Shown here in pieces: positions 2,251-48,868 of a stretch of DNA of 64,000 nucleotides. The stretch's first letter is position 1. Each line of letters opens with the position of its first letter. Source of the stretch: Bradymonadales bacterium (GTDB lineage Bacteria; Bdellovibrionota; UBA2394); the NCBI GenBank assembly GCA_007693605.1, contig REDG01000051.1, positions 6,255-70,254 of the forward strand, in the 5' to 3' direction. The notes beneath the pieces were generated by a model. It did no database searches. It saw nothing but the letters and a program-made list of their open reading frames with translations, and was not told the origin of the DNA. Made by a program: the position numbers and the translations under genes.

Positions 2251-3126
2251 GTGCTGATTCCTTCGATACAGGAAAGAAAAACATGGCTTGTTTTTCTGAT
2301 TTCTTTGCTAGTGGGTCTGAATCTTTATTTCAATTTTTCTTATACAGGTGGACTTGAGGGTCGGGCGAAGTGGATTGACCAAGCCTTTCTTCAGGTCTTC
2401 TCTCCCATTCAGTACGGAGTGGCTCAAACGAAGATTGGTTTACGATCGAGTCTTTTTGTTGTCAAAGAGATGTGGTCGGCTCGAGAGGAAAATCAGGAGT
2501 TGCGATTTCGACTTTCGGAGCTTTCTTTGCGTTTACAACAGCAGGGTGAAATTGAAGCCGAGAATACAAGGCTCCGAGAGCTTTTGGAGTTTCGAGAACG
2601 ACAACCCATGGAGTATTTGGTGGCGCGTGTGATCGCTAAAGATCCAAGCGCCTTTTTTAAGACCGTGATGATTGATCGCGGTCGAGAGAGCGGCGTTGAG
2701 GAGGGGATGCCCGTGGTCAGCGCCGAGGGCGTAGTCGGAAGAATTCAGGCGGTTGGCCCCTTGAGCTCTCGAGTTTTACTGATTAACGATGTCAATTCTC
2801 GAGTCGATGCCGTCATTCAACGATCGAGAGCGCGAACCATTGTCGCAGGCGGGCTGGGTGGAACTCTTAATCTTCGTTTCCTTCCAAGGCGACAGGATAT
2901 TCGAGTGGATGATTTGGTGGTGACTTCGGGCTTAGGCGAGAGCTTTCCTGCCGGCTTTCGAATTGGCTGGGTTTCAGAGGTGAAACGAGATCCCAATGTG
3001 GTTTTAGAGGAGGCCAAAATTCGGGCCGCTGTGAACTTTGACTCGGTGGAAGAGGTCTTTGTGATTCGAGGCAGGCAACAGAGTCAGGAGGGTTTAAATG
3101 TCGATGGAGCCGCTCCGCGGAATTGA
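2251..3126 (+). CDS. mreC: Rod shape-determining protein MreC
   Basis: N-terminal TM, coiled coil (ENTRLRELL), IDRG..GV..GMPV, GVVGRI, VVTSGLG; follows mreB. Confidence 0.95.
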   Translation: MLIPSIQERKTWLVFLISLLVGLNLYFNFSYTGGLEGRAKWIDQAFLQVFSPIQYGVAQTKIGLRSSLFVVKEMWSAREENQELRFRLSELSLRLQQQGEIEAENTRLRELLEFRERQPMEYLVARVIAKDPSAFFKTVMIDRGRESGVEEGMPVVSAEGVVGRIQAVGPLSSRVLLINDVNSRVDAVIQRSRARTIVAGGLGGTLNLRFLPRRQDIRVDDLVVTSGLGESFPAGFRIGWVSEVKRDPNVVLEEAKIRAAVNFDSVEEVFVIRGRQQSQEGLNVDGAAPRN

Positions 3127-3613
3127 ATTTGCCGGCTCCCCTTGGCCAAGAGACCTGGGCGTTTTGGCGGCATGGTTTTTGAGCCTATTGATATTTTCCG
3201 TGTTTCAGACTCCAAATTTGGTGGTGTGGAGCGGGCTCCCCTTTCTAATTCTCTACGGGGCTTGGGCCTGGCCCTTCTTAAAAGCGGCCGTTCTCTTTCT
3301 TGTCGTCGCATGGATCTATTCGAGCGTCTCGCTCACGCCCTCTGGGCTTCTCTGGCTAAGTCTCTTTGTGGCCTATCTTGTGGTTTATTTCGCTCAGTTT
3401 CGAATCATGATTCGAAATATTTGGCAGTTTATGGCGGTCGTGCTTTGTTTAAGCTGGGGTTTTGAGCTGATTCAATTGTTTCTCGTCTCTCAGCTCTATC
3501 CGGGGCATAATCTAAATTGGCAGCTGTGGGGAAGCATCGGCCTAGTGGGCTTTTCCCACTCGGTGGTGGCCTTGGTCATTTATCCTTCCGTGCAGCGCTG
3601 GGTTGTTTCGTAG
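3098..3613 (+). CDS. mreD: Rod shape-determining protein MreD (divergent)
   Basis: Hydrophobic 171-aa multi-TM protein between mreC and mrdA; call rests on synteny. Confidence 0.7.
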   Translation: MSMEPLRGIEFAGSPWPRDLGVLAAWFLSLLIFSVFQTPNLVVWSGLPFLILYGAWAWPFLKAAVLFLVVAWIYSSVSLTPSGLLWLSLFVAYLVVYFAQFRIMIRNIWQFMAVVLCLSWGFELIQLFLVSQLYPGHNLNWQLWGSIGLVGFSHSVVALVIYPSVQRWVVS

Positions 3614-3623
3614 GCTAAACTTC

Positions 3624-5525
3624 ATGAGGCTTTCAGATCCATATAACACCACAGAGCTGAAGAGCCGGGCCCAATTTGTGGCGATTGGCTTTGCTTTTCT
3701 CATTTTTCTTTTGCTCTTTCGACTTTGGTACCTTCAGATTTGGCGGGGTGAAGAGTATCGACTCTTTAGCGATCGCAATCGATTTAAGATTGAAAGAATT
3801 TCGGCGCCACGAGGTCAGATTCTAGACCGACGAGGGGCCTTGCTGGCAGATAATCGACCTCGATTTGATATTCATGTCACCCGTGCTTTTGCCACGAACC
3901 TAGATAAAGAGCTGGAAGCCTTGAAGTCGATTCTTCAATGGTCAGATGAAGAGTTTGAAGAGCGAAGCAGATTAGTGAAAGCTTTTCCTTTGTATCAATC
4001 TCGCCGAATTGCACGCGATGTCAGTTGGGATCAGTTGGCTCAAGTTGAGAATCGATCGAATGAACTCTCTAGCTTAGGCATTCAAGTGCAGTCCGTTCGT
4101 GATTATTTGTATGGTGACGCATTCTTTCATGTGATTGGCTATACCGGAGAAGTCAGTGAGATCAATTTGCAACGACTCCGCCAACGATTTCCTGATCGAA
4201 ACTATCGTTTGGGAGATTCTATCGGAGTGATTGGGGCGGAGTCGATTTATGAGCGCTTTCTGCGGGGTTCTGATGGAAGAGAGTTTGTCGTTGTGGATGT
4301 GAAGGGGCGACCCGTCCACCGAACGAACTTGAGGCTTTTTGATCAAAATACGCGCGTCGGGGCAAGAGCCGGAAACAGCTTGGAGTTGAGTCTTGATCTG
4401 GAGTTGCAGCTCACAGCCCTTCGCGCCTTTGGCGATCAGCGGGGGGCGGCGGTAGCCCTAGACCCCAACACGGGCGAGATACTCGCGATGATCTCTAGAC
4501 CTTCTCTCGATCCGAATCTCTTCACCCGAGAGTTGACGGGTCGGCAACTCAACGCTTTGAGAGAGCGGCCAGACAAGCCCTTTCTAGACCGCAGTTTAGG
4601 AGAGCATTATCCGCCAGGTTCAACTTACAAGATGTTGATGGGGGCGGCAGCGCTTGAAGAGGGGGTGGTGACGGCAGAGCAAAGCTTTCATTGCCCGGGC
4701 TTCTTTCGGTTCGGAAGAAGGATTTGGAGATGTCATCGTCGTTCTGGTCATGGACATGTCGACTTGCGGGAAGCGATCAAAGTTTCATGCGATGTTTACT
4801 TTTACAATGTGGCTCTAGCCTTGGGCCTCGATCGAATGCATCGGTGGGCTAAACAGTTTGGCTTGGGACGACGCACGAACCTGGGCCATGAGATTTTTTC
4901 GAATAGTCCCTTGGCACAGTTTTATCGTTTCAATTCTGAACAGACTGGATTCGTTCCAAACTCATCCTGGGTTAGGCGCTCAGGACATACCAGCTTAGAA
5001 GGAGAGACCATCAATGCGGGGATTGGACAGGGGGGCAATCTAATGACCGTGACCCAGCTTGCGCGCATGACGGCGGCTTTTGGAAATTCGGGCCAATTCT
5101 TTCAACCTCAGCTCGTTCGCGCTCAGAGAAGACCGGGGGGCGATTTGATTGAAGCCTACGAAAGCCTTTTAGAAAATCAGGTTCAGCTGAAGCCCGAGAC
5201 TTCTGCGCTGATTTTGGATGCGATGAAGGCGGTTGTAAATGAAAGAGACGGAACGGCCTTAGGTTCTCGAATCGCTGAGTTTTCGTGGGGGGGAAAGACG
5301 GGAACTTCTCAGGTGGTAGCGCTATCGTTGCGACCAGAAGATGAGGATGAGATTCCCTTTGAGATGGAACATCATGCTCTTTTTGTTGGCTTGGCTCCGA
5401 TCGAAAACCCCAAGATCGCCGTCGCCGTGATCGTGGAGCATGGTCGCAGCGGATCGAGAGCAGCCGCACCCATTGCGCGAGCCATGGTTCGCAATTATTT
5501 AAATCGTCAGGTGGCAGCAAGATAA
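3624..5525 (+). CDS. mrdA: Penicillin-binding protein 2
   Basis: APRGQILDR, PGSTYK (SxxK), SCD (SxN variant typical of PBP2), KTGTSQ; start taken at ATG 3624. Confidence 0.95.
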   Translation: MRLSDPYNTTELKSRAQFVAIGFAFLIFLLLFRLWYLQIWRGEEYRLFSDRNRFKIERISAPRGQILDRRGALLADNRPRFDIHVTRAFATNLDKELEALKSILQWSDEEFEERSRLVKAFPLYQSRRIARDVSWDQLAQVENRSNELSSLGIQVQSVRDYLYGDAFFHVIGYTGEVSEINLQRLRQRFPDRNYRLGDSIGVIGAESIYERFLRGSDGREFVVVDVKGRPVHRTNLRLFDQNTRVGARAGNSLELSLDLELQLTALRAFGDQRGAAVALDPNTGEILAMISRPSLDPNLFTRELTGRQLNALRERPDKPFLDRSLGEHYPPGSTYKMLMGAAALEEGVVTAEQSFHCPGFFRFGRRIWRCHRRSGHGHVDLREAIKVSCDVYFYNVALALGLDRMHRWAKQFGLGRRTNLGHEIFSNSPLAQFYRFNSEQTGFVPNSSWVRRSGHTSLEGETINAGIGQGGNLMTVTQLARMTAAFGNSGQFFQPQLVRAQRRPGGDLIEAYESLLENQVQLKPETSALILDAMKAVVNERDGTALGSRIAEFSWGGKTGTSQVVALSLRPEDEDEIPFEMEHHALFVGLAPIENPKIAVAVIVEHGRSGSRAAAPIARAMVRNYLNRQVAAR

Positions 5526-40412: not shown

Positions 40413-40436
40413 GCTTTCTGGAATTCAAATCCATCA

Positions 40437-40471
40437 CTAGTGGTTCAACCGGTAAATTTTTTCATGTTCTG
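40437..40471 (+). repeat. Repeat family B (IS-end-like)
   Basis: CTAGTGGTTCAACCGGTAAATTTTTTCATGTTCTG; related copies at 49944 and 63547. Confidence 0.65.
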
Positions 40472-40502
40472 AATCAAGATTTTGCTTCGAATCAAGGCGG
40501 GG

Positions 40503-41024
40503 CTAGCCGTCGACCAGAGCCTTTTCAAAAATTTCGTCAATGAAGAACTGGGTCTTTGCGGGTATCCTCGCCTTTGGATAGTATTCCTGAATCACTTGGT
40601 AAACTTTCTCTGGCGACCGTAGGCCTAGAAACGAAATCAGGAAAATGACATCATCTCGATCAGAAGTGTCCCATCTCGCACTAATTGTCTTCATGGCCAA
40701 AAGATAGTCTGCCTCAGGCGTCCAAACCAGAAGATGATCAAACTCAAAGAGAATTCGTTTTTTCGGCACTGGGACCATAAAGGCTTTTGCGGCGTCATTC
40801 AGCCAATCATCGGACAAAGAGTTCTCTTCAGCAACTTCCTTCGCGGCAAGACGCACTTCACTGCTTGGCTCAAAAACGCCATCAACATCTTTTGTTGAGG
40901 CCCTGGCTTTAAAGGCTAGGCACATGGCTGCCCCGCCAACGATCCCCAGTTCTCCCCGAATGTTTTTTCTCTTTAGGATATTCGAAAGCTGTCTCAGATA
41001 ATTCTTTATCTCATCCCTTTCCAT
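40503..41024 (-). CDS. DUF6036-like nucleotidyltransferase (candidate toxin)
   Basis: IVGGAAM...RASTKDVD (Pol-beta NTase GG/DxD), WLNDAAK, YLLAMK..SAR...DRDD. Confidence 0.8.
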   Translation of the reverse strand: MERDEIKNYLRQLSNILKRKNIRGELGIVGGAAMCLAFKARASTKDVDGVFEPSSEVRLAAKEVAEENSLSDDWLNDAAKAFMVPVPKKRILFEFDHLLVWTPEADYLLAMKTISARWDTSDRDDVIFLISFLGLRSPEKVYQVIQEYYPKARIPAKTQFFIDEIFEKALVDG

Positions 41025-41026
41025 GT

Positions 41027-41590
41027 TTAGGCCCTTTCAAAAAAGTTTTCTAAAATGAAAACATTCTTCATCTTAAAGCGAGCAGGGGATTCTAAAATGG
41101 CTGAAGCCTTCAAAGATTCGATGCCAGAAACAAACCAGGGCTGAGAAAGCGGTGCTGCATCTAAAGCCCATGCTGGCGGGGAAAATTCACTGCGATGACA
41201 GAGCTCTAGAACAATGGCAGAAATCAAGGCTTGGAGGCGTGGATTCAAAGCTCGGACAGGCGGAGTGATAAGAAGCCTTGCATCTTTGGTTCTTAGAAAC
41301 TCATCAATGAGATTGAAGAAATGCAGCTTCCATGAGTCTTCCCCCTCTTGTGAAACGGCCAGGGAAACCACGGGCACGGAGTATCGGAAATCGGCCTTTG
41401 AATTCTTCAAATATTCAAAAAGCTCCAGCTCCCGATGAGAAGCCTGTGCTATCTTTTTCAAAGTCTTCAGGCTGGCATTTCGTTCCCCTTCCTTGATGTG
41501 ACGAAGGGTCGTTCGAGAGATGCCCGCCAGTCGAGCCAGCTCCCTTTCCGAGACCTGATGCAAATTTTTGTTATTGTTCAAGTTTCTCAT
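41027..41590 (-). CDS. XRE-family HTH protein with C-terminal putative antitoxin domain
   Basis: SERELARLAGISRTTLRHIKEG..NASLKTL; C-terminal PPAW....PLSQPWF...ESPARFK.KNVF. Confidence 0.8.
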   Translation of the reverse strand: MRNLNNNKNLHQVSERELARLAGISRTTLRHIKEGERNASLKTLKKIAQASHRELELFEYLKNSKADFRYSVPVVSLAVSQEGEDSWKLHFFNLIDEFLRTKDARLLITPPVRALNPRLQALISAIVLELCHRSEFSPPAWALDAAPLSQPWFVSGIESLKASAILESPARFKMKNVFILENFFERA

Positions 41591-41629
41591 GGTACAATAT
41601 ATTGTACCATTTTATGGCTTAGGGCACAA
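41589..41629 (-). promoter_or_regulatory. sigma70 promoter overlapped by a perfect 22-bp palindromic operator
   Basis: Minus strand TTGTGC-17bp-TACAAT (with TG extension); ATGGTACAATATATTGTACCAT at 41589-41610 covers the -10 box and part of the start codon. Confidence 0.75.
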
Positions 41630-41655
41630 GGCTGTCGAAACTGTCCGCCATGCAA

Positions 41656-41670
41656 GGGGAGTGTCGCCAA
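41656..41670 (+). repeat. Short fragment of repeat family A
   Basis: GGGGAGTGTCGCCAA. Confidence 0.4.
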
Positions 41671-41678
41671 TGGCTCCC

Positions 41679-42479
41679 TTAAGCTCGGCGGCTTGGGTGC
41701 TGGTACCAAGCTCGAACCTTCCGGTCTTTCGGATACTTCTTTTGGAGTAGGTTTTCGACGGCCTCCATTTTGCCGTCTGAGGGAATCCACTCTGCTAGGT
41801 CGGGAAAGTCCACTCGACAGTTTTCACAATGTTTATTTTCGTAAAACCGAATGGGACACCAGAAGCTTTCATTGTTGCGAACCATTTCTCCCCCCAGAGA
41901 GTAAACACCGGCAGCCCACTCGCAGTACAAACACCAAAGGAGATCAATCCCAACCAGACCTTGAAACTTATGCCGAGAAACTTGAATGAAGTCAGAGTGT
42001 ATGTAGCGAGGAAAGCCCAGAGAAAATTGCAATAGGGGATACAGGAAGATTTGTCCGAAACGGACCACTAAAAAACAGGGAAGGGCCAAGAGGGTAAAGT
42101 AGAAGCCTGCGAGAACTTTGACGGTGCCGACCGATGAGCCAAGCACCTTGAGCAAGCGACCCCCTTGAGAGCCTGACCGAAGATAAGCCAGCCAAGAATG
42201 AATGCGGCAAAAGATCGCCAGATAGATCGACTGAGTGACAACAGACACGAGAAATCCGGCGATGCCCATATACAATGCGCTGAACAAAGGCGGCAGCCAA
42301 ACAAAGACAGCGACCCAGAAGTCTAGAATGGGCACTTTACGAAATCTTTCAGCTAACGAATTGGATTGAAGACCGAGATAGAGGGCGAGCGTATTCCCCA
42401 ACAGCCACAAAAAAATCCACAGCGCCCACTCGACCTGGTCTGACCATAATGAATGCAATGCTTCCAAGAACACCCCCAA
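41679..42479 (-). CDS. Hypothetical membrane protein with Cys-rich C-terminal domain
   Basis: 4-5 TM segments then WCLYCEW, ESFWCPIRF, KHCENC; start uncertain. Confidence 0.7.
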   Translation of the reverse strand: MGVFLEALHSLWSDQVEWALWIFLWLLGNTLALYLGLQSNSLAERFRKVPILDFWVAVFVWLPPLFSALYMGIAGFLVSVVTQSIYLAIFCRIHSWLAYLRSGSQGGRLLKVLGSSVGTVKVLAGFYFTLLALPCFLVVRFGQIFLYPLLQFSLGFPRYIHSDFIQVSRHKFQGLVGIDLLWCLYCEWAAGVYSLGGEMVRNNESFWCPIRFYENKHCENCRVDFPDLAEWIPSDGKMEAVENLLQKKYPKDRKVRAWYQHPSRRA

Positions 42480-42577
42480 AGCTCATTTGAGCAGAAAACT
42501 GAGAAATGTAAATCTTAAGTCTGTGATGAGTCGGGTTTCATTGGGGGTGTTAAAGAGATGCTTTGAATGAGCCCCCA

Positions 42578-43384
42578 TCACTGGTGATTTTCGAGTTCCT
42601 GCTTCAGAAAGCTGCGGATCTGCTCTTGATAAGTCTCTTGTAGAAGAAACTGATTGTGACCCATGGATTTAAATGCGACCAGTTTCTTGAGGTGAGGAAG
42701 CTGAGCGGCCAGTCTTTTGCTGGAGCTTGGGGGGACCACTTCATCTGTCTCGCTGAACAAAACAAGGCTTGGGGCTTGAACTCGCGGGGCCCAATCAATT
42801 GAGGGGAATGGGTGCCGAAGCAGGAGTTTCACCGGAAGCCAGGGGTAGTGTCTTCGAGCGATGTCGACCAGACTCGCGGCAGGGGCTTGTAGAATGAGGC
42901 CCGCACTTTGAATTCGTTGCGCAGCCACCCAAACGGCCACCGAACTTCCGATCGATTCTCCAAACAAAAAAATGGGCCCTGGCGATTCAGACTCGATGAG
43001 GTCGAAAACCTCCAGTCCGGCTCGAAGAAAAGCTTCTTGAGAGGCCTTTCGACGAGGCTCTCCGCCATAGCCCGGGTATTCAAGAAATATGAGATTGAGG
43101 GGAAGCCCTTCCAGGACTTCCGAAAAGAAGAGTCGATCGCAGGCAGAGCCCGCATTTCCGTGAAAATAGATCAGGCTTCCCTCAGCGCCTGCTTGCTGTC
43201 GATGATAGAAACGAACTTCATTCTGTTCGACAGCCACAAAGGAGTAGCTCTTGGCCTCCGAGCAGTTTCCAAATGTGGAACCAAAGCTCTGAAAAATGAG
43301 AAACTTCTGAAGCAGGAACAGCAGCAAGCATAGCCCCAGCCAAACAGAAAAAATCAAAACGGCAACTCGAAGGATTGAATTCAT
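42578..43384 (-). CDS. Alpha/beta hydrolase (ABHD13/17-like), membrane anchored
   Basis: YFHGNAG, EYPGYG, GESIG nucleophile elbow, DEVVP, GHN. Confidence 0.88.
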   Translation of the reverse strand: MNSILRVAVLIFSVWLGLCLLLFLLQKFLIFQSFGSTFGNCSEAKSYSFVAVEQNEVRFYHRQQAGAEGSLIYFHGNAGSACDRLFFSEVLEGLPLNLIFLEYPGYGGEPRRKASQEAFLRAGLEVFDLIESESPGPIFLFGESIGSSVAVWVAAQRIQSAGLILQAPAASLVDIARRHYPWLPVKLLLRHPFPSIDWAPRVQAPSLVLFSETDEVVPPSSSKRLAAQLPHLKKLVAFKSMGHNQFLLQETYQEQIRSFLKQELENHQ

Positions 43385-43576
43385 TGAAGCTTTTCTATCA
43401 CTTTTGGGTGTTTCGGCGAAAGGCCGGAGCGGGACTTCGGTGACCGCCGTTGCGACAGCCCGTGGGCAAGCGATCGCTGTGCCCCCCTCGGGCTGGACTG
43501 AGCCAGCTCCTTGAAATGATTGATGATTAGGCTCTTATATTGGACTTGCCAGAGGGGCTAAAACTCGGCTTGGGTC

Positions 43577-43592
43577 AGGTACGATTCTTGCG
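43577..43592 (+). promoter_or_regulatory. Putative sigma54 promoter
   Basis: AGGTACG-ATTC-TTGCG: GG-N10-GC spacing, about 13 bp before the start of the sigma-like gene. Confidence 0.45.
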
Positions 43593-43604
43593 AATCTCAT
43601 AGGG

Positions 43605-45155
43605 GTGATGGTGGTCAGGCGTTTCCATATCGCGATTTTTGCTCTCGCTTTGGGTCTATCGACTTTTTTGGCGCCAGCTTCTTTGCGTGCTGATATCTGC
43701 AGGACAGTGACCGAGATATTGGCAAACAAGCTGACGGCGGATGCCTCGCCAGGAAATAAAGGAAGATTGCGGTTCATGGATTTGTTCAGAGCTTTGGGCC
43801 TGGAAGGCTCTGACACTCTTCACGAAGCTAAAAATAAAAGTCCTAAAGCGGTCAATCAGGAAGTCGAGAGCATTCAAAGCTCGGAGATTGCTCCCCGGAT
43901 TTTAAGGATGGAGGCTCTTGAAGAGCAGATGCTGAGGGAGATTTCAAACGCGTACAATTCATTGTCAAAGTCAGAGAAGGAGAGGCTGAAGGCTTCTAAA
44001 GAGAAGGAGGCTTCTAATCTTCAAAAGGGTCTTTCGCTCGAAGCTTCACGAAAGGAGCGAGTGCGGGCGATCATGGCGGCAAACCTTGAGTTTCCGAATT
44101 GGTTTCAAAGTAAAGAAATGAGCGAAGCCTTTGATGAGTGGAGAACTTTAGAAACGGAGCTGCTGGACTTGATGATGGGCTATGTCACCACCCTGGCGGC
44201 CAGGTCCGTCAGACCAAACCGACCGGATGATTTTGCAGACGCTCTTCAAGAGGGAGCGATGGCGGCCGTAGAGGCGATTCGAGCTTATGAAGTTTCAAGT
44301 GGCTTCAATCTAACCACCCTTCTGCACCCATATGTTTCAAAAAAGTTGGAGAGTTTAGGGGTCTCAGGACTGAGACAACGAGAGGCAGGCTATCTTAAAG
44401 CCCCTGAGCTAGAGTGGCTGGCAGGCTTTCATGAGGAGTACGGGCGCGACCCATCTTTTGAAGAAATCCGCTTCGAGTTTCCGAAGCCTGTTCAACACAA
44501 CAGAATGTGGGACCAAATCAGGACGGGTCAGCAGCGAAACTCTCGTTCTCTCTTTGTGCCCGATCCCGATGGGGGATTTCGACTTCGGCCCTTGAGCGAT
44601 CCTTCCGTGGAATCTCCTGGCGTTCAACGGGAGAGAATCGAGCTTCTCGATCGTTTACTCAGTGAGATCACCAAGCACGAAGAGGCCAATCAATTTGTCA
44701 TGTACTATCGATTGAAGTGGGGCGAAAGACTGCAAGAAAATAGTCGAGGGGAAATCATCCCGCAATCCCTTTTGACCGATGAGCAAATTCAAGAACAACT
44801 AGGTTTTAACAATCGACAAAACCTTGAGCACTTTTTAGATCGAATGCAGTACAAACTTTTGGTCGTCTCTGCCTTTGACTCTCGCCCCGATCTGTTTAAC
44901 GAAGTGGATAAACAGGTAGTTTCTCGAAAGTATGGTCTCTTTGGTGTGGGTGCGATTCAGGCGAGAGCTAATCCCAAGTCTCTGGCAAAGGAGTTGGGAT
45001 TAACAGAAGAACAAGTGAAAGAGAGTTTACTGAAAGTCCAGTCTTGGATCATTGCCGAAGGTCATTTGTTTTCTAGAAAGCAGCTTTTGAGTTTTCTTCC
45101 CGACGATCTGAAGGAAGCCTTCGAGACTCTCTCGGGGCCTTCGATCAGGGAGTGA
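43605..45155 (+). CDS. Signal-peptide-bearing, degenerate sigma70-family-like protein
   Basis: Sec signal (RR, hydrophobic core, SLRA cleavage) then DALQEGAMAAVEAIRAYE..SGF (region 2), EEYGRDPSFEEI (region 3), SLAKELGLTEEQVK (region-4-like HTH). Confidence 0.7.
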   Translation: MMVVRRFHIAIFALALGLSTFLAPASLRADICRTVTEILANKLTADASPGNKGRLRFMDLFRALGLEGSDTLHEAKNKSPKAVNQEVESIQSSEIAPRILRMEALEEQMLREISNAYNSLSKSEKERLKASKEKEASNLQKGLSLEASRKERVRAIMAANLEFPNWFQSKEMSEAFDEWRTLETELLDLMMGYVTTLAARSVRPNRPDDFADALQEGAMAAVEAIRAYEVSSGFNLTTLLHPYVSKKLESLGVSGLRQREAGYLKAPELEWLAGFHEEYGRDPSFEEIRFEFPKPVQHNRMWDQIRTGQQRNSRSLFVPDPDGGFRLRPLSDPSVESPGVQRERIELLDRLLSEITKHEEANQFVMYYRLKWGERLQENSRGEIIPQSLLTDEQIQEQLGFNNRQNLEHFLDRMQYKLLVVSAFDSRPDLFNEVDKQVVSRKYGLFGVGAIQARANPKSLAKELGLTEEQVKESLLKVQSWIIAEGHLFSRKQLLSFLPDDLKEAFETLSGPSIRE

Positions 45156-46227
45156 ATATTTTCTGATCGAGTTTAAAGCCTGAACGACGAGCCTCCTCTA
45201 GAAAGCTTGGGAGCTCGCCCGTTGGCCGGTGCTTGACTCGGGCTTTGGCGCCTTCCTTTTGTTCCAGAATTTCTAAAACAAAGAGATCTCGGATGTCGTA
45301 GTTTCCTGACTCATCCAGGCCCACCAGTTCTGAAACATGAGTCAATCGGCGGCTGCCGTCGCGAAGCCTTGAGGCCTGAACAATAATTTGAATGGCATTG
45401 GCAATTTGACTTCGAATGGCAATCAGAGGCATTTCGAGTCGGTTCATCATAATTAAAGTTTCAATTCGTGAGATCGCTTGCCGAGGGTTGTTGGCGTGAA
45501 GGGTGGACATACTTCCGGAATGGCCGGTAGTCATGGCCTGTAGGAGGTCCAGAGCCTCGGGGCCCCGAACCTCTCCAATCACAATCCGATCGGGTCGCAG
45601 TCGCAGCGAGCTTTTAACGAGATCTCGAATATCGACCGTCAACTTGTCACTATGAACGCTCTCCATGCGGAGAACATGTTCTTGCTGAAGTTGAAGCTCT
45701 GAGGCGTCTTCAATCACCACGATTCTTTGGTCGGAGGGAATAAAACTTGAGATCGCGTTGAGCAGAGTGGTCTTTCCGGAGCTGGTGGAGCCTGAAACGA
45801 TTAGGTTTTTCTTCAGTTGAACACAGACATGAAGAAAGCGAGCCATGTCGACTGACATCGCGCCCACCTTCACCAAGTCTTTAACTTCTAAGGGCACATC
45901 GCCAAACTTTCGAATGGCCATATACACCCCATCTTTGGCGCAAGGCGGGACGACAATATGAATTCGACTGCCGTCGGGCAATCGAGCGTCCATGACGGGG
46001 TTGAGTTCATCAATTCGCCGGCCCACAAACTGGGCCACATTTCTCGCTGCTGCAAACAAAGCGTCTTCATCGGCGAAGGCTGTTTCGGCTCGAATCAGCT
46101 TTCCCTTGCGCTCGATATAAATCTCGTCGGGTGAATTGATAAGGATTTCGGTTACACTGTCGTCGTCCAAGAAGTCCAAAATAGGACCCAAAAAGCTCCG
46201 AGTCGTGTCGTTTTCGATCAAGGCCAC
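45145..46227 (-). CDS. cpaF: CpaF/TadA family secretion ATPase
   Basis: VTEILIN, DARLPDGSRI, IRKF, GSTSSGKTTLLN, IEDASEL, RLRPDRIVIGEVRG, TGHSGSMSTLHAN; GTG start 46227. Confidence 0.93.
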   Translation of the reverse strand: MALIENDTTRSFLGPILDFLDDDSVTEILINSPDEIYIERKGKLIRAETAFADEDALFAAARNVAQFVGRRIDELNPVMDARLPDGSRIHIVVPPCAKDGVYMAIRKFGDVPLEVKDLVKVGAMSVDMARFLHVCVQLKKNLIVSGSTSSGKTTLLNAISSFIPSDQRIVVIEDASELQLQQEHVLRMESVHSDKLTVDIRDLVKSSLRLRPDRIVIGEVRGPEALDLLQAMTTGHSGSMSTLHANNPRQAISRIETLIMMNRLEMPLIAIRSQIANAIQIIVQASRLRDGSRRLTHVSELVGLDESGNYDIRDLFVLEILEQKEGAKARVKHRPTGELPSFLEEARRSGFKLDQKIFTP

Positions 46228-46262
46228 AAGCCCATTATAACCCCTTTTCTGGGCCTGACGCT

Positions 46263-46278
46263 TGGCACAGGCTTTGCA
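46263..46278 (+). promoter_or_regulatory. sigma54 (-24/-12) promoter of the TPR/Glt-like gene
   Basis: TGGCACA-GGCT-TTGCA, near-perfect consensus, about 30 bp before ATG 46307. Confidence 0.7.
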
Positions 46279-46306
46279 TTTCTTAAGGAATGCCCTGGGG
46301 GCCATT

Positions 46307-48868
46307 ATGCCAAAAAACAGTCTAAGTTATTTAATTCACTCACTTTTTAGCTCTTTTGCGTCTGGGCTCAAATGGGGGCTCTGTGTCGCAGTTGGGGCCT
46401 TGATGGGTCTTGAGCTCTCTGCCTCAGAAATCTCTGAACTAGAGCGTCGAGAGCGACTGCACGAGCTCTATCAGCGGCAAATTCCTCTTCTGGAACAATT
46501 TGTTCGCAATCACGAACGATCAGAGCAAACGCCTGCGAACCTCTTTCGCTTGGGCGAGGCCTATTTCGAGTCGGCCAAATACTATCAGTTGAAAGGGAAT
46601 CAATCTCGAACTACGGTCTTCTTTCAAAGAGCCATTCAAGCGCTTGAGAAACTTCGTACAGATTTTCCTCTTTACGAACGAGCGGATGAAGCCTTGTTTG
46701 TTTTGTCCTCGGCCTATCTTGAGACTTCTCGAAATGCTGAAGCAGGCGGCGTTTTGGCAGAGATCGCCAGGCGATTCCCTCAATCTCCCATCATGACCCA
46801 AGCCGCCTATCTTTTAGGGGATCACTTTTATTCTCAGGACAATATGACAGAAGCCAAAAAATATTATGAGATGGCTTCTCAAATTGAGGAATCGAAAGTC
46901 TATGGGCACTACCGATTGGCTTGGGTGGCCCTTCGTCAAGGGCAAGCCGCCGTGTCTCTCAGGCATTTTGTGGAAAGCATTCGTCTGAGCTCCGAAGGCT
47001 CCAGCTCTAATTACGACTATTCAAAAGATGCTGCGCGAGAGATGGTCTGGCCAGCCCTAGAGGTTCATCGCCCTCAACAAGTGATTCGCTACTTGCAAAG
47101 CACTTTGCCCAACAAGGAACTTTTAGAGATTTCTTTGAACGCTCTAGCCATGGGATCGATGACCAAAGAGGATTATCGTCTTGCTAGTCAAATTTTTGAT
47201 GTTTTGACTCAAGACTTTCAGGACTCTGCCCGCTTTGATAGTTGGATGAAGGCTCAACTAGAGGCCGAAGAAAAACTCGGTCGTTCGGATCGTATTGTTG
47301 ATTTGGTTTCTCGCTTGAGCGAGCGAGAGGGGAATTCGACCGAAATTCGCACTCAAATCTATACAAACGCCAAAAAGTATCATGCTTTGGCCCAAGCAGA
47401 GAAAGATCCGAAAGTCAGAGACTCGAACTACGATCAAGCCATCGCGTATTATCAGGCCTTTGTAAAGATGGGGGAAGATCTCAAAACTCAAGAGACCCAG
47501 TTCTACCTGGGTGAGGCGCTCTACACTCGGGGGCGATATGAAGAGGCGGTTCGAGCCTACCAAGCTTCTGTTCAGGGGCAACACGAAAAGCAGCAAGACG
47601 CCGCTTGGAACTGGTATCACACCGCAGAAAAGCTGGCCCCGGGCTTTCGCTATGAAGGTGAATCTGCAAGGCCCCTGCAGGCCAAGGATGAAGAGTTTTT
47701 AACGGCCGCCCGCTTTGTGGCTTCCGCCGATTTTATGCCTGAAGAAAGGCGTCGAACGGCGAGTTATCAGTCTGCCCGACTTCTGTATCAACTCAATCAA
47801 CACGATCAAGCACTGCCCCTCTTTCAGCAGCTGGCAGAGCGCTTTCCTCAGACCAAAGAAGGCCAGATGAGTGCTCAGCTTGTACTCGATATTCATAATT
47901 TGAAGGGAGATTATCGAGCGGTGGCCCAATACGCGCGAGACCTCAGGCAACAATCGGCTCCGGCTGAGGCTGGAAAGTTGGCGGAGCTCGAAGCTCAGGC
48001 CCTCTTTAAAAGCCTTCAAGCCGAAGAACGGCAGGCGAGAGAATTTCCAGAACGCCAAAGGATTTCAGCCTTTCGGCAGATGTCTCAACGCTATCTTCAG
48101 TATGCAAGACAGTATCCAGAAGCCGAGCTGGCCCCCGCCGGGCTTTGGGCGGCTCTTCAGTTGTCTGCCACGGTGGCCACTTTTGAGGGAGACCGGCGAT
48201 TTACCTCCGTTCGCGAGCTGTTTGATCTCTTGAGGGCCAGATATTCTAACACCGAGTTTATGCCTCGGGCGGTCGATTTGATGGGAGAGTTTTTGGCGCA
48301 CCAACAGCCTGAAGTTTCAGCCCTTCATGGCTTAGAAATTTATCGAGAGGCCTGGCTTAAACAAATGAGACAACAGCCAGCGGCTGAGCGAGGTCTTTGG
48401 GGGAGCTATCTCTATGAACTTTCAAGTGAGAGCCAAAAGAAGGCCCTTCTCAAAGAGTTCTCAACTTTTCCGGTGAGCGCAGAGAATCGAAAGTTAATTG
48501 CGAAGTATCGGTTCTCAGAAGTAGAAGAGCAGTTAGTGTCTTATCGGGATGTGAGCTTGAACCAACTTTCGAGTTTAGCCAAAAATACACAGGAGAAGTT
48601 AAAGAGATTGGAGCGCCTCGAGTCCTCGGTGAAAGCTATGGTCGAACTCGGAGACCCAAAGTCTGCCGTGGCTTCTTTGGATCTGTTGGCGGTTGCCTAT
48701 GCCGAGATGGGTCAGGCCTTTCGAGAGGCCCCAGTGCCAGACTCGCTCGAGCCTGAGCAGCTTCAGCAATATCGACAAGCCGTCGAAGAAAAGGCTCGAG
48801 ATTACGACCTAGAAGCTCGCAAGACTCGAGAGCTGTCTAGGCAAACAGCAAGAAGGCTTGGAATCTAA
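46307..48868 (+). CDS. Exported multi-TPR protein, GltD/AgmU-like
   Basis: Hydrophobic N-terminus; repeated TPRs (LFRLGEAY, ADEALFVL, FPQSP...AAYLLGDHFY, YRLAW); C-terminal APVP..L...Q..QYRQ.VEE; upstream of gltF/gltG-like genes. Confidence 0.7.
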   Translation: MPKNSLSYLIHSLFSSFASGLKWGLCVAVGALMGLELSASEISELERRERLHELYQRQIPLLEQFVRNHERSEQTPANLFRLGEAYFESAKYYQLKGNQSRTTVFFQRAIQALEKLRTDFPLYERADEALFVLSSAYLETSRNAEAGGVLAEIARRFPQSPIMTQAAYLLGDHFYSQDNMTEAKKYYEMASQIEESKVYGHYRLAWVALRQGQAAVSLRHFVESIRLSSEGSSSNYDYSKDAAREMVWPALEVHRPQQVIRYLQSTLPNKELLEISLNALAMGSMTKEDYRLASQIFDVLTQDFQDSARFDSWMKAQLEAEEKLGRSDRIVDLVSRLSEREGNSTEIRTQIYTNAKKYHALAQAEKDPKVRDSNYDQAIAYYQAFVKMGEDLKTQETQFYLGEALYTRGRYEEAVRAYQASVQGQHEKQQDAAWNWYHTAEKLAPGFRYEGESARPLQAKDEEFLTAARFVASADFMPEERRRTASYQSARLLYQLNQHDQALPLFQQLAERFPQTKEGQMSAQLVLDIHNLKGDYRAVAQYARDLRQQSAPAEAGKLAELEAQALFKSLQAEERQAREFPERQRISAFRQMSQRYLQYARQYPEAELAPAGLWAALQLSATVATFEGDRRFTSVRELFDLLRARYSNTEFMPRAVDLMGEFLAHQQPEVSALHGLEIYREAWLKQMRQQPAAERGLWGSYLYELSSESQKKALLKEFSTFPVSAENRKLIAKYRFSEVEEQLVSYRDVSLNQLSSLAKNTQEKLKRLERLESSVKAMVELGDPKSAVASLDLLAVAYAEMGQAFREAPVPDSLEPEQLQQYRQAVEEKARDYDLEARKTRELSRQTARRLGI

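Follow-up and report, generated by a model that had tools for sequence, protein, structure and literature searches.

A divergent sigma-70-like protein of an uncultured Bdellovibrionota lineage belongs to a set of sigma factors with a Sec-type leader and an early cysteine

The open reading frame (ORF) at 43605..45155 (+) of a 64,000-nucleotide stretch from a Bradymonadales bacterium (assembly GCA_007693605.1, contig REDG01000051.1, positions 6,255 to 70,254; hereafter the window) was confirmed as a real gene and encodes a protein of 516 amino acids (aa), the target of this analysis, in which a Sec-type leader and a single cysteine precede a very divergent sigma-70 body. The same architecture recurs in at least 29 sigma-like proteins (27 from related genomes plus two in the source genome of the window) from 13 of the 24 genomes listed in full, which belong to three families of Bdellovibrionota. 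These proteins form a previously unremarked set that includes more than one kind of sigma factor, and what is new in it is a variant of the sigma-70 family together with an N-terminal module, neither of which is described in the literature searched. As far as sequence can tell, these sigma factors are probably not just retained in the cytoplasm of the cell that makes them; it is likely that the cargo is exported across the inner membrane, and the whole chain of events, in which export would end at the RNA polymerase (RNAP) of a prey cell, is put forward tentatively.

The evidence that carries this finding is the recurrence of the architecture. In the source genome (G000; 2.19 Mb in 79 contigs, 90% complete), a second sigma-like ORF on contig C59 (P0003), below the Sigma70 threshold, starts with a hydrophobic leader followed by a Cys, in this case inside the public gene call; P0003 passes TIGR02937, with SigE (E 5.4e-15) and SigK (E 1.5e-10) as the best-scoring models, and shows no BLASTP similarity to the target, and a BLAST search with the leader within the source genome gave no match. 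Among 44 Sigma70_r2 matches from relatives, chosen by atypical score or length and blind to the N-terminus, 27 have a leader and Cys; among the other 17, five are false r2 matches, three are ORFs truncated by the end of a contig, three are canonical-type factors, and there are two each of RpoD pieces, ECF-sized proteins and ECFs with C-terminal extensions (the ECF-sized matches examined were L107, L118 and L119, together with the FliA-like L134). None of 14 canonical sigma controls (eight fetched as such, three among the atypical set and three in the source genome) carries a leader, and every readable homologue does. The conserved architecture, set against the leaderless controls, bears out the view of the first-pass annotation that the gene encodes a sigma factor with a signal peptide, a view that it would have given up had homologues lacked the signal. 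Of the 14 genomes in the order, which contains a single family, 11 have members; two other families are represented by G021 and G040, and the distribution beyond the order is based on 10 genomes listed in full, from a phylum scan of 45. Genome G021 alone has six members, three of them in tandem, and a probable seventh.

Some further observations concern the arrangement of these genes. Locus L129 (G021:C35:23000-29500) holds three or four leader-Cys sigma-like genes in a row, at 34-1260, 1260-2465, 2465-3643 and 3648-4811 in L129, and L128 (G021:C14:7500-12500) holds two in tandem. At the end of the source-genome contig C59 (L087, 12620-13114, - strand) lies a 164-aa sigma-like ORF, possibly a truncated paralogue, in which the σ4 helix-turn-helix (HTH) is interrupted by an unusual insertion also present in P0003, and whose best NCBIfam match is the sigma model of the MzaA anti-phage system (E 1.2e-7, far below the cut-off).

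The layout common to the family is a positively charged n-region, a short hydrophobic core, an AXA-type site, a Cys zero to eight residues further on, a helix of the form C-x-x-Φ-Φ-[KR]-x-Φ, a variable linker of about 40 to about 1000 residues, and the domains σ2 to σ4. The Cys is the sole invariant column in an alignment of 13 members (A1; about 17% identity); the residues before it are mostly acidic or polar, and, counting from it, position +4 is L, F, V or I in 22/29 members, +5 is K or R in 12/29 and +7 is L, V, A or I in 19/29, with no Cys downstream of the signature Cys in 23/29. Around the signature, the target (…APASLRADICRTVTEIL…) is close to member L106 (…KPAISRADSCIRSL…). By an automated parse, a Cys lies near the leader end in 27 of the 29 members, compared with 9 of 101 non-lipobox signal-peptide proteins of the source genome (Fisher p 5e-18). 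An AXA-type site occurs at most 14 residues upstream of the Cys in 24 members, and for the remaining five the script had fixed on a Cys within the leader itself. The mean charge is +1.56 in the n-region and -0.31 in the 15 residues after the core (16 members), the uncharged run, c-region included, has a median of 16 residues (range 9-24), and a second transmembrane-like segment is found in none of the 29. A lipobox ([LVI][ASTVI][GAS]C) is likewise found in 0/29, charged residues preceding the Cys; the ordinary lipoproteins of the source genome use L-S-A-C. The module has, in its sequence, all the hallmarks of a cleavable Sec signal.

A Tat signal was considered as well and rejected: the target has RR, but among the other members adjacent n-region arginines occur only in L111 (…GSRR), and the motif is not conserved. 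No Tat-signal model appeared among the NCBIfam matches; TatC is present in the source genome.

The leaders of the family behave as coding sequence, as judged from public annotation and from substitution patterns. In 11 of 15 cases the leader-including sequence is identical in public gene calls, where the only labels are hypothetical protein, 'polymerase subunit sigma-24' and 'sigma-70 family RNA polymerase sigma factor', and in pairs of orthologues the leaders have pN below pS (0.50 versus 0.73 and 0.35 versus 0.52; in a third pair the leader is identical).

The kinship of these proteins to sigma-70 factors is evident from the family profile A1, which retrieves canonical sigma-70s with E values down to 4e-33, and from members that exceed the Pfam cut-offs for r2, r3 and r4 (for instance, 55 bits to r2 in L088, 61 bits to r4 in L128, and 61, 39 and 28 bits to r4, r2 and r3, respectively, in L133). 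The σ2 cores are RpoD-like (L088, with FSTYATWWIRQAI), FliA-like (…DW-VPR) or ECF-like (L118), and most members carry σ3 and a group 1-3 or FliA-like σ2; the long N-terminal regions of the members of 777-1257 aa match no Pfam domain. In a quick tree, whose long branches make placements unsure, the leader-bearing proteins do not form one clade, the starred branches forcing at least three changes of label, and their branches measure about 1-2.8, compared with 0.1-0.5 for canonical sigmas of the same genomes. Their genes are found in variable islets and tandem arrays.

The module is also present on cargo other than sigma factors. In the source genome, the leader, a single Cys and Φ at +3 and +4 head five non-sigma proteins: an 825-aa PrkA-type AAA+/kinase (L138, C42:130053-132530); a 782-aa protein that combines a σ3-type HTH with a calcineurin-like phosphoesterase domain (L139, C71:11999-14347); an ATP-grasp enzyme with four Cys (L141, C42:11523-13016); and two long proteins without known domains (L137, C9:19417-21651, and L140, C73:5849-9610). 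By hhalign, L137, L139 and L140 are not sigma-like. Orthologues of module-bearing cargo are L143, L144, L146 and L157-L160. The PrkA paralogue, which is divergent from canonical PrkA, has the leader and Cys and no other mature Cys in 4/4 full-length copies (G000, G003, G007 and G008), whereas the canonical PrkA of the same genomes has no leader and 2-10 Cys in 9/9; if a single ancestral event is assumed, the probability of having no such Cys at the canonical rate is about 0.005. In the HTH-phosphoesterase family, the module is present in 5/5 orthologues. The fact that ATP-dependent, cytoplasm-type cargo bears the same module argues against the periplasm as its final site. DsbA-type proteins and a VKOR domain are encoded in the source genome, so its periplasm should be oxidising. 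One 385-aa frame at G000:C61:29102-30139 (-) combines VKOR and DsbA-type thioredoxin domains, and DsbB was not found.

The target itself can be divided, from its translation start to its stop codon, into the following features of the window:

43601..43608 (+), Shine-Dalgarno (SD)-like sequence AGGGGTGA, 5′ of the clustered starts, assessed by pairing energy to an anti-SD probe
43605..43613 (+), three adjoining candidate starts, GTG 43605, ATG 43608 and GTG 43611
43605..43691 (+), Sec-type leader, residues 1-29, with an n-region containing RR, the hydrophobic core IAIFALALGLSTFLA and AXA-type sites APA|S or LRA|D, kept in kind across the 29 family members
43698..43733 (+), signature Cys32 and amphipathic motif C-x-x-Φ-Φ-[KR]-x-Φ (CRTVTEILANKL), the Cys being the invariant column of alignment A1
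43734..44156 (+), charged, probably helical linker, residues 44-184, without family match, with a weak region-1.2-like signal from about residue 108
43776..43778 (+), internal ATG (M58), the start in the public gene call (459-aa form, P0002), with an SD-like GGAAG 10 nt upstream (ΔG -5.6)
44157..44348 (+), σ2, with region 2.1 (ELLDLMMGYV), region 2.2 with QEG (ALQEGAMAAVEAIRAYE) and a degenerate region 2.3 (FNLTTLLHPYVSKKL)
44427..44561 (+), σ3-like stretch (FHEEYGRDPSFEEI ... SRSLFVP), known from the PDB SigA alignments only, the sub-segment alone being without family match
44637..44861 (+), σ4 unit 1, residues 345-419, with an insertion before the HTH, aligning with σ4 of family members (hhalign probability 93.8 to a σ4-bearing paralogue)
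44922..45047 (+), σ4-like HTH unit 2, residues 440-481 (SRKYGLFG ... SLAKELGLTEEQVKESLLKVQSW), with weak HTH and Sigma70 matches over residues 454-485
45153..45155 (+), stop codon, the 3′ end overlapping a convergent CpaF-like gene (45145-46305, -) by 11 bp

Residues 1-29 of the target (VMVVRRFHIAIFALALGLSTFLAPASLRA, followed by DIC) were proposed at first pass to be a Sec-type signal, and the sequence hallmarks, the heuristic used here for Sec signals and the recurrence in the family all agree with that proposal; Cys32 is the sole Cys of the protein. The sigma homology of the target is almost certain in view of the family profile together with several concordant but weak similarities of its own: TIGR02937 of NCBIfam matches residues 199-482 (E 7.2e-8, 32.2 bits, below the cut-off of 42.9), Pfam Sigma70_r2 gives 17.2 bits (19.5 on the sub-segment, below the cut-off of 24), PHROG 351 'RNA polymerase sigma factor' matches σ2 (E 2.3e-4), and PDB SigA chains align over residues 182-364, that is, regions 2 to 3.2 including LGRDPS.EEI (E 0.051 and 0.13). 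In the ESM Atlas, 10/10 listed structure neighbours of the 459-aa form are sigma-70 clusters (TM 0.34-0.43), a comparison that rests on a mediocre model of that form (pTM 0.40); the feature neighbours of the target include viral clusters, and the linker region gave only scores below 0.9. These signals agree that the collinearity with sigma70 noted at first pass is real, though weak for the target alone. The residue map of that annotation also held, with the core-binding QEG kept and the aromatic stretch of region 2.3 replaced by LTTLLHPYV: DALQEGAMAAVEAIRAYE of the target aligns with DLIQEGNIGLMKAVDKFE of the source genome's own RpoD, which places a region 2.1-2.2 core-binding helix in the target, and where RpoD has FSTYATWWIRQAI the target has FNLTTLLHPYVSKKL, the promoter-melting aromatics being lost. 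Both of the region-4-like units that had been reported are real by alignment and hhalign, the second being an extra repeat common to 6/13 aligned members. No direct homologue of the target was found by word-based search or by an exhaustive HMMER search of 1.84 billion representatives, which returned only the target itself; taken alone, and judged by these comparisons, the target is a sequence ORFan and a very divergent sigma-70-family protein.

The reading that we favour would begin with translation of the chain from GTG 43611 or ATG 43608, after which the leader would take it through SecYEG and be cut off by signal peptidase I. The Cys, which would lie 2-6 residues from the predicted new N-terminus in the target (0-8 in the family), would then act in the oxidising periplasm, possibly by disulfide bonding with a carrier or with another copy of the protein. 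Since sigma domains and ATP-dependent enzymes would be useless in the periplasm, the cargo would have to be passed on to a compartment with RNA polymerase and ATP, and the likeliest such compartment would be the cytoplasm of a prey cell, where σ2, with its QEG helix, and the σ4 units would occupy the prey RNAP core. Because the target is without the promoter-melting aromatics, it would more likely block or sequester the core than direct transcription. In its most general form, which is more tentative still, this reading takes the leader-AXA-Cys-helix module as an address tag for predator-to-prey delivery of sigma factors, a PrkA-type AAA+ kinase, an ATP-grasp enzyme and an HTH-phosphoesterase, in which Sec export, handling through the Cys in the periplasm (for example, disulfide linkage to a carrier and release on reduction), arrival in the prey cytoplasm and seizure of the RNAP core would follow one another; copies with the melting residues would redirect the prey RNAP, and copies without them, such as the target, would silence it. 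Topology rules, core lengths, AXA sites, the lack of a stop-transfer segment and the purge of Cys from PrkA favour export. Passages of PMC13689555 describe how transcription in Escherichia coli prey stops 20-25 min after invasion by Bdellovibrio bacteriovorus.

Several points weigh against this reading. No exported or leader-bearing sigma factor is on record in the literature searched, outside which subscription journals largely fell; we know of no route by which such cargo would cross the outer membrane of the producer and the inner membrane of the prey; and predation by the source lineage, which is uncultured, is assumed from its phylum. All signal-peptide counts come from a crude home-made heuristic, and the related genomes are not independent samples. 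The low Cys content of the sigma bodies is of no diagnostic value, the canonical sigmas of these genomes being Cys-poor as well, and was dropped as evidence for export after this control, and the lack of Cys in the PrkA paralogue is less striking against a background in which 12.7% of ORFs of at least 700 aa have no Cys beyond residue 45. The promoter-melting motif kept in L088, L090 and L133 fits an ordinary own-cell sigma equally well. With regard to the target, no orthologue was found in 40 relatives at the protein level, in 20 relatives at the DNA level or in its own genome; the public gene call begins at M58, 3′ of the leader, and drops the signal-like N-terminus; SD pairing is typical of real starts for both GTG 43611 (-6.5) and ATG 43776; and codons 1-57 are neutral by three coding models (including codon usage and a 3-periodic Markov model), so that the choice of start is not settled by them; relative to real signal-peptide N-termini their scores fall at the 16th-17th percentile, and among stop-free non-coding windows they are mid-range.

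The points that concern the start codon also speak for an annotation artefact, in which translation would begin at ATG 43776, the stretch upstream would be signal-like by chance and untranslated, and the gene would encode a cytoplasmic alternative sigma of the ordinary kind, gained within a variable islet. Besides the public call, the ESM Atlas carries the 459-aa form, its ATG has the SD pairing of -5.6 already mentioned, codons 1-57 (score -0.034) resemble stop-free non-coding DNA (mean -0.032) rather than coding sequence (mean +0.104), and there is no orthologue to show conservation of the target leader. Nevertheless, at least 57 open codons upstream are found at 7.7% of non-coding ATGs, and the target frame stays open for 26 further codons upstream of 43605; a signal-like start, which the heuristic accepts in the target from each of the three clustered starts, was accepted in 135/967 long ORFs of the genome versus 15/3439 (0.44%) spurious ORFs embedded in other frames; and anti-SD pairing at GTG 43611 is of a strength reached by 9% of internal start codons (-5.2 for ATG 43608), SD motifs being used in the source genome. 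The coding score, in turn, is unremarkable relative to matched signal-peptide N-termini, with a density ratio of 1.5 favouring coding. Given the very large number of windows scanned, a coincidence of this sort would be expected to fall on a sigma gene about once, and the start evidence from the gene alone is therefore not convincing; the target leader is taken as translated because the family architecture recurs, and not because of the target's own coding statistics. The exact family signature is present in the target (an AXA-type site, a Cys 2-6 residues on, Φ at +3 and +4, and a single Cys), close to that of L106 (…AISRADSCIRSL…), and 28 other sigma-like proteins have it. On this basis the leader of the target is very probably translated and functional, GTG 43611 or ATG 43608 being the likeliest start, and the artefact is most improbable. 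In two metatranscriptome runs of the same study, 0 reads fell over 42500-46400, neighbouring genes included, which carries no weight for or against the gene, and the DNA run that is probably the source of the assembly showed no variants.

If the leader is translated, it may still serve within the producing cell. In a membrane-gated pro-sigma, the leader would keep the cargo on the cytoplasmic side of the inner membrane of the producing cell, or insert N-out, until a protease or a thiol switch at the Cys freed the active sigma, in place of anti-sigma factors. This is a considerably less probable explanation than export, despite precedents for sigma factors with removable or membrane-bound parts (pro-σE and pro-σK, BldN, IutY, ECF48, ECF52 and ECF53, and some ECF36), despite SigE and SigK being the best-scoring models for P0003 and the retention of complete promoter-melting motifs by some members, and despite the requirement of sigma factors, AAA+ kinases and ATP-grasp enzymes alike for a cytoplasm. 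The flanking charges predict an N-in/C-out orientation, the hydrophobic cores go down to 9-13 residues, too short for the bilayer, the AXA-type site would be needless in a membrane anchor, none of the 29 members has a second transmembrane segment that would stop translocation, the loss by the PrkA paralogue of all Cys of its canonical relatives would be needless for a cytoplasmic protein, and no conserved neighbouring protease or partner was found among 16 loci. In its favour again, passages of PMC3464611 describe ECF-type sigma genes of B. bacteriovorus without adjacent anti-sigma genes. A somewhat weaker candidate accepts export and the same signal-peptide evidence as the favoured reading, and has the protein act elsewhere than on another cell's RNAP, either by removal or storage of sigma factors, for which FlgM export provides a regulatory principle, or by re-use of the sigma fold in the envelope. 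The loss of the region 2.3 aromatics in the target and the long branches, which suggest relaxed or altered constraint, would agree with this; however, the σ2.2 core-binding motif and σ4 HTH are kept at about 17% family identity, which points to continued use on RNAP and DNA, the ATP-dependent co-cargo (PrkA AAA+ and ATP-grasp) cannot work in the envelope, and 29 diverging paralogues would be unneeded for disposal. Disposal or re-use is, on balance, unlikely.

The comparison with known systems leads in several directions. With the alternative sigmas of the sigma-70 family (groups 1-3, such as SigA/RpoD, RpoS/RpoH and FliA), the set shares a collinear σ2 with QEG, a σ3-like stretch and the σ4 HTH, to which the target and its family add a Sec-type leader, an invariant Cys and a long linker, the target differing further in scoring below curated thresholds, lacking the 2.3 aromatics and having a second σ4-like unit. 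In Bacillus, pro-σE and pro-σK are membrane-associated and have an N-terminal prosequence that is removed. In Streptomyces, an N-terminal extension of BldN is cleaved off, as described in passages of PMC7826278. The likeness to these three lies in a removable N-terminal sequence, together with the affinity of P0003 for the SigE and SigK models; their prosequences, however, are not Sec signals, are without an AXA site or conserved Cys, and have dedicated proteases. Fusions to membrane parts are found in IutY, in ECF48, ECF52 and ECF53, with C-terminal transmembrane parts, and in some ECF36, with three or four N-terminal transmembrane helices, and passages of PMC8999054 present freeing by proteolysis as likely. 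Those fusions have true transmembrane helices, mostly C-terminal, that keep the sigma domain cytoplasmic, whereas the present family has a single short N-terminal core and no other transmembrane segment, and most of its members are not ECF-type.

Other parallels concern proteins that leave the cell or act on a foreign RNAP. FlgM, an anti-sigma factor, leaves through the flagellar type III apparatus, so that a component of a sigma circuit leaves the cytoplasm; it differs in that the anti-sigma is what leaves, with no Sec signal and by another secretion route. Sigma factors and sigma appropriators encoded by phages engage the host RNAP core and are made inside the host; such takeover proteins are alike in being foreign sigma-like proteins on an RNAP core, and the PHROG 351 match and the viral Atlas neighbours of the target point the same way, but they need no export signal, and the target locus is without phage context. 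The wall-modifying enzymes that Bdellovibrio secretes in a Sec-dependent manner act on prey components; these prey-directed enzymes are hydrolases acting on the envelope or on released contents, not transcription factors or ATP-dependent enzymes, and to our knowledge no leader-Cys signature has been described for them.

The target gene occupies a variable islet, delimited by comparison of the locus with relatives:

40413..45144 (no strand), variable islet of about 4.7 kb between conserved acyl-CoA dehydrogenase and CpaF genes

Besides the sigma-like gene, the islet contains genes for a DUF6036 nucleotidyltransferase, an α/β-hydrolase, an HTH_3 protein and a membrane protein, and is flanked on the right by a CpaF-TPR gene pair; in L002 the same slot holds one 363-aa ORF unrelated to the target, and in L003 a two-component system. 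The adjacency to CpaF, to which the first-pass annotation had drawn attention, is real, the genes being convergent with the 11-bp overlap, yet it is incidental, given the differing content of the slot in L002 and L003 and a BLASTP comparison (1e-5) of 103 ORFs around 16 family loci, no two of which had a neighbour in common (a partner encoded elsewhere was not sought). The sigma54-like promoter that had been assigned to the gene (43577-43592) did not stand, since it has three mismatches and 63 such matches were found versus 80.2 expected in shuffles; a scan for sigma-70-type promoters gave 0 sites. Defence-system models did not match the sigma-like gene, and no phage context was found at its locus.

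A near-perfect sigma54 -24/-12 element with one mismatch (TGGCACAGGCTTTGCA; 46263-46278, +) is found at the head of the TPR ORF and in divergent orientation to the CpaF-like gene, and rpoN is present in the source genome. At the left edge of the islet, an intergenic element of about 63 bp (40437-40499) has at least 13 further copies, 87-96% identical, on other contigs of the same genome. Next to it, at 40503-41590 (-), the adjoining DUF6036 nucleotidyltransferase (173 aa) and HTH_3 (187 aa) genes form a toxin-antitoxin-like pair, the DUF6036 gene having DNA-level relatives in G004, G005 and G010. The islet membrane protein (266 aa; 41679-42479, -) has a Cys-rich C-terminal part (C-x2-C … C-x10-C-x2-C) and no family match; a 199-bp stretch of its gene has a 74% DNA match in G010.

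Sigma factors are textbook examples of proteins that function only in the cytoplasm, and here a conserved, multi-copy and fast-evolving set of them carries a secretion signal and a lone Cys. With this signature, the full complement of cargo in these genomes can be sought by a simple rule. If these proteins are not exported, they would represent a new way to keep sigma factors, and kinases with them, inactive at the membrane in a phylum largely without classical anti-sigma partners; if they are exported, they would represent a way for one bacterium to reach the transcription machinery of another, and a lead on how a predator may shut down the transcription of its prey within minutes.

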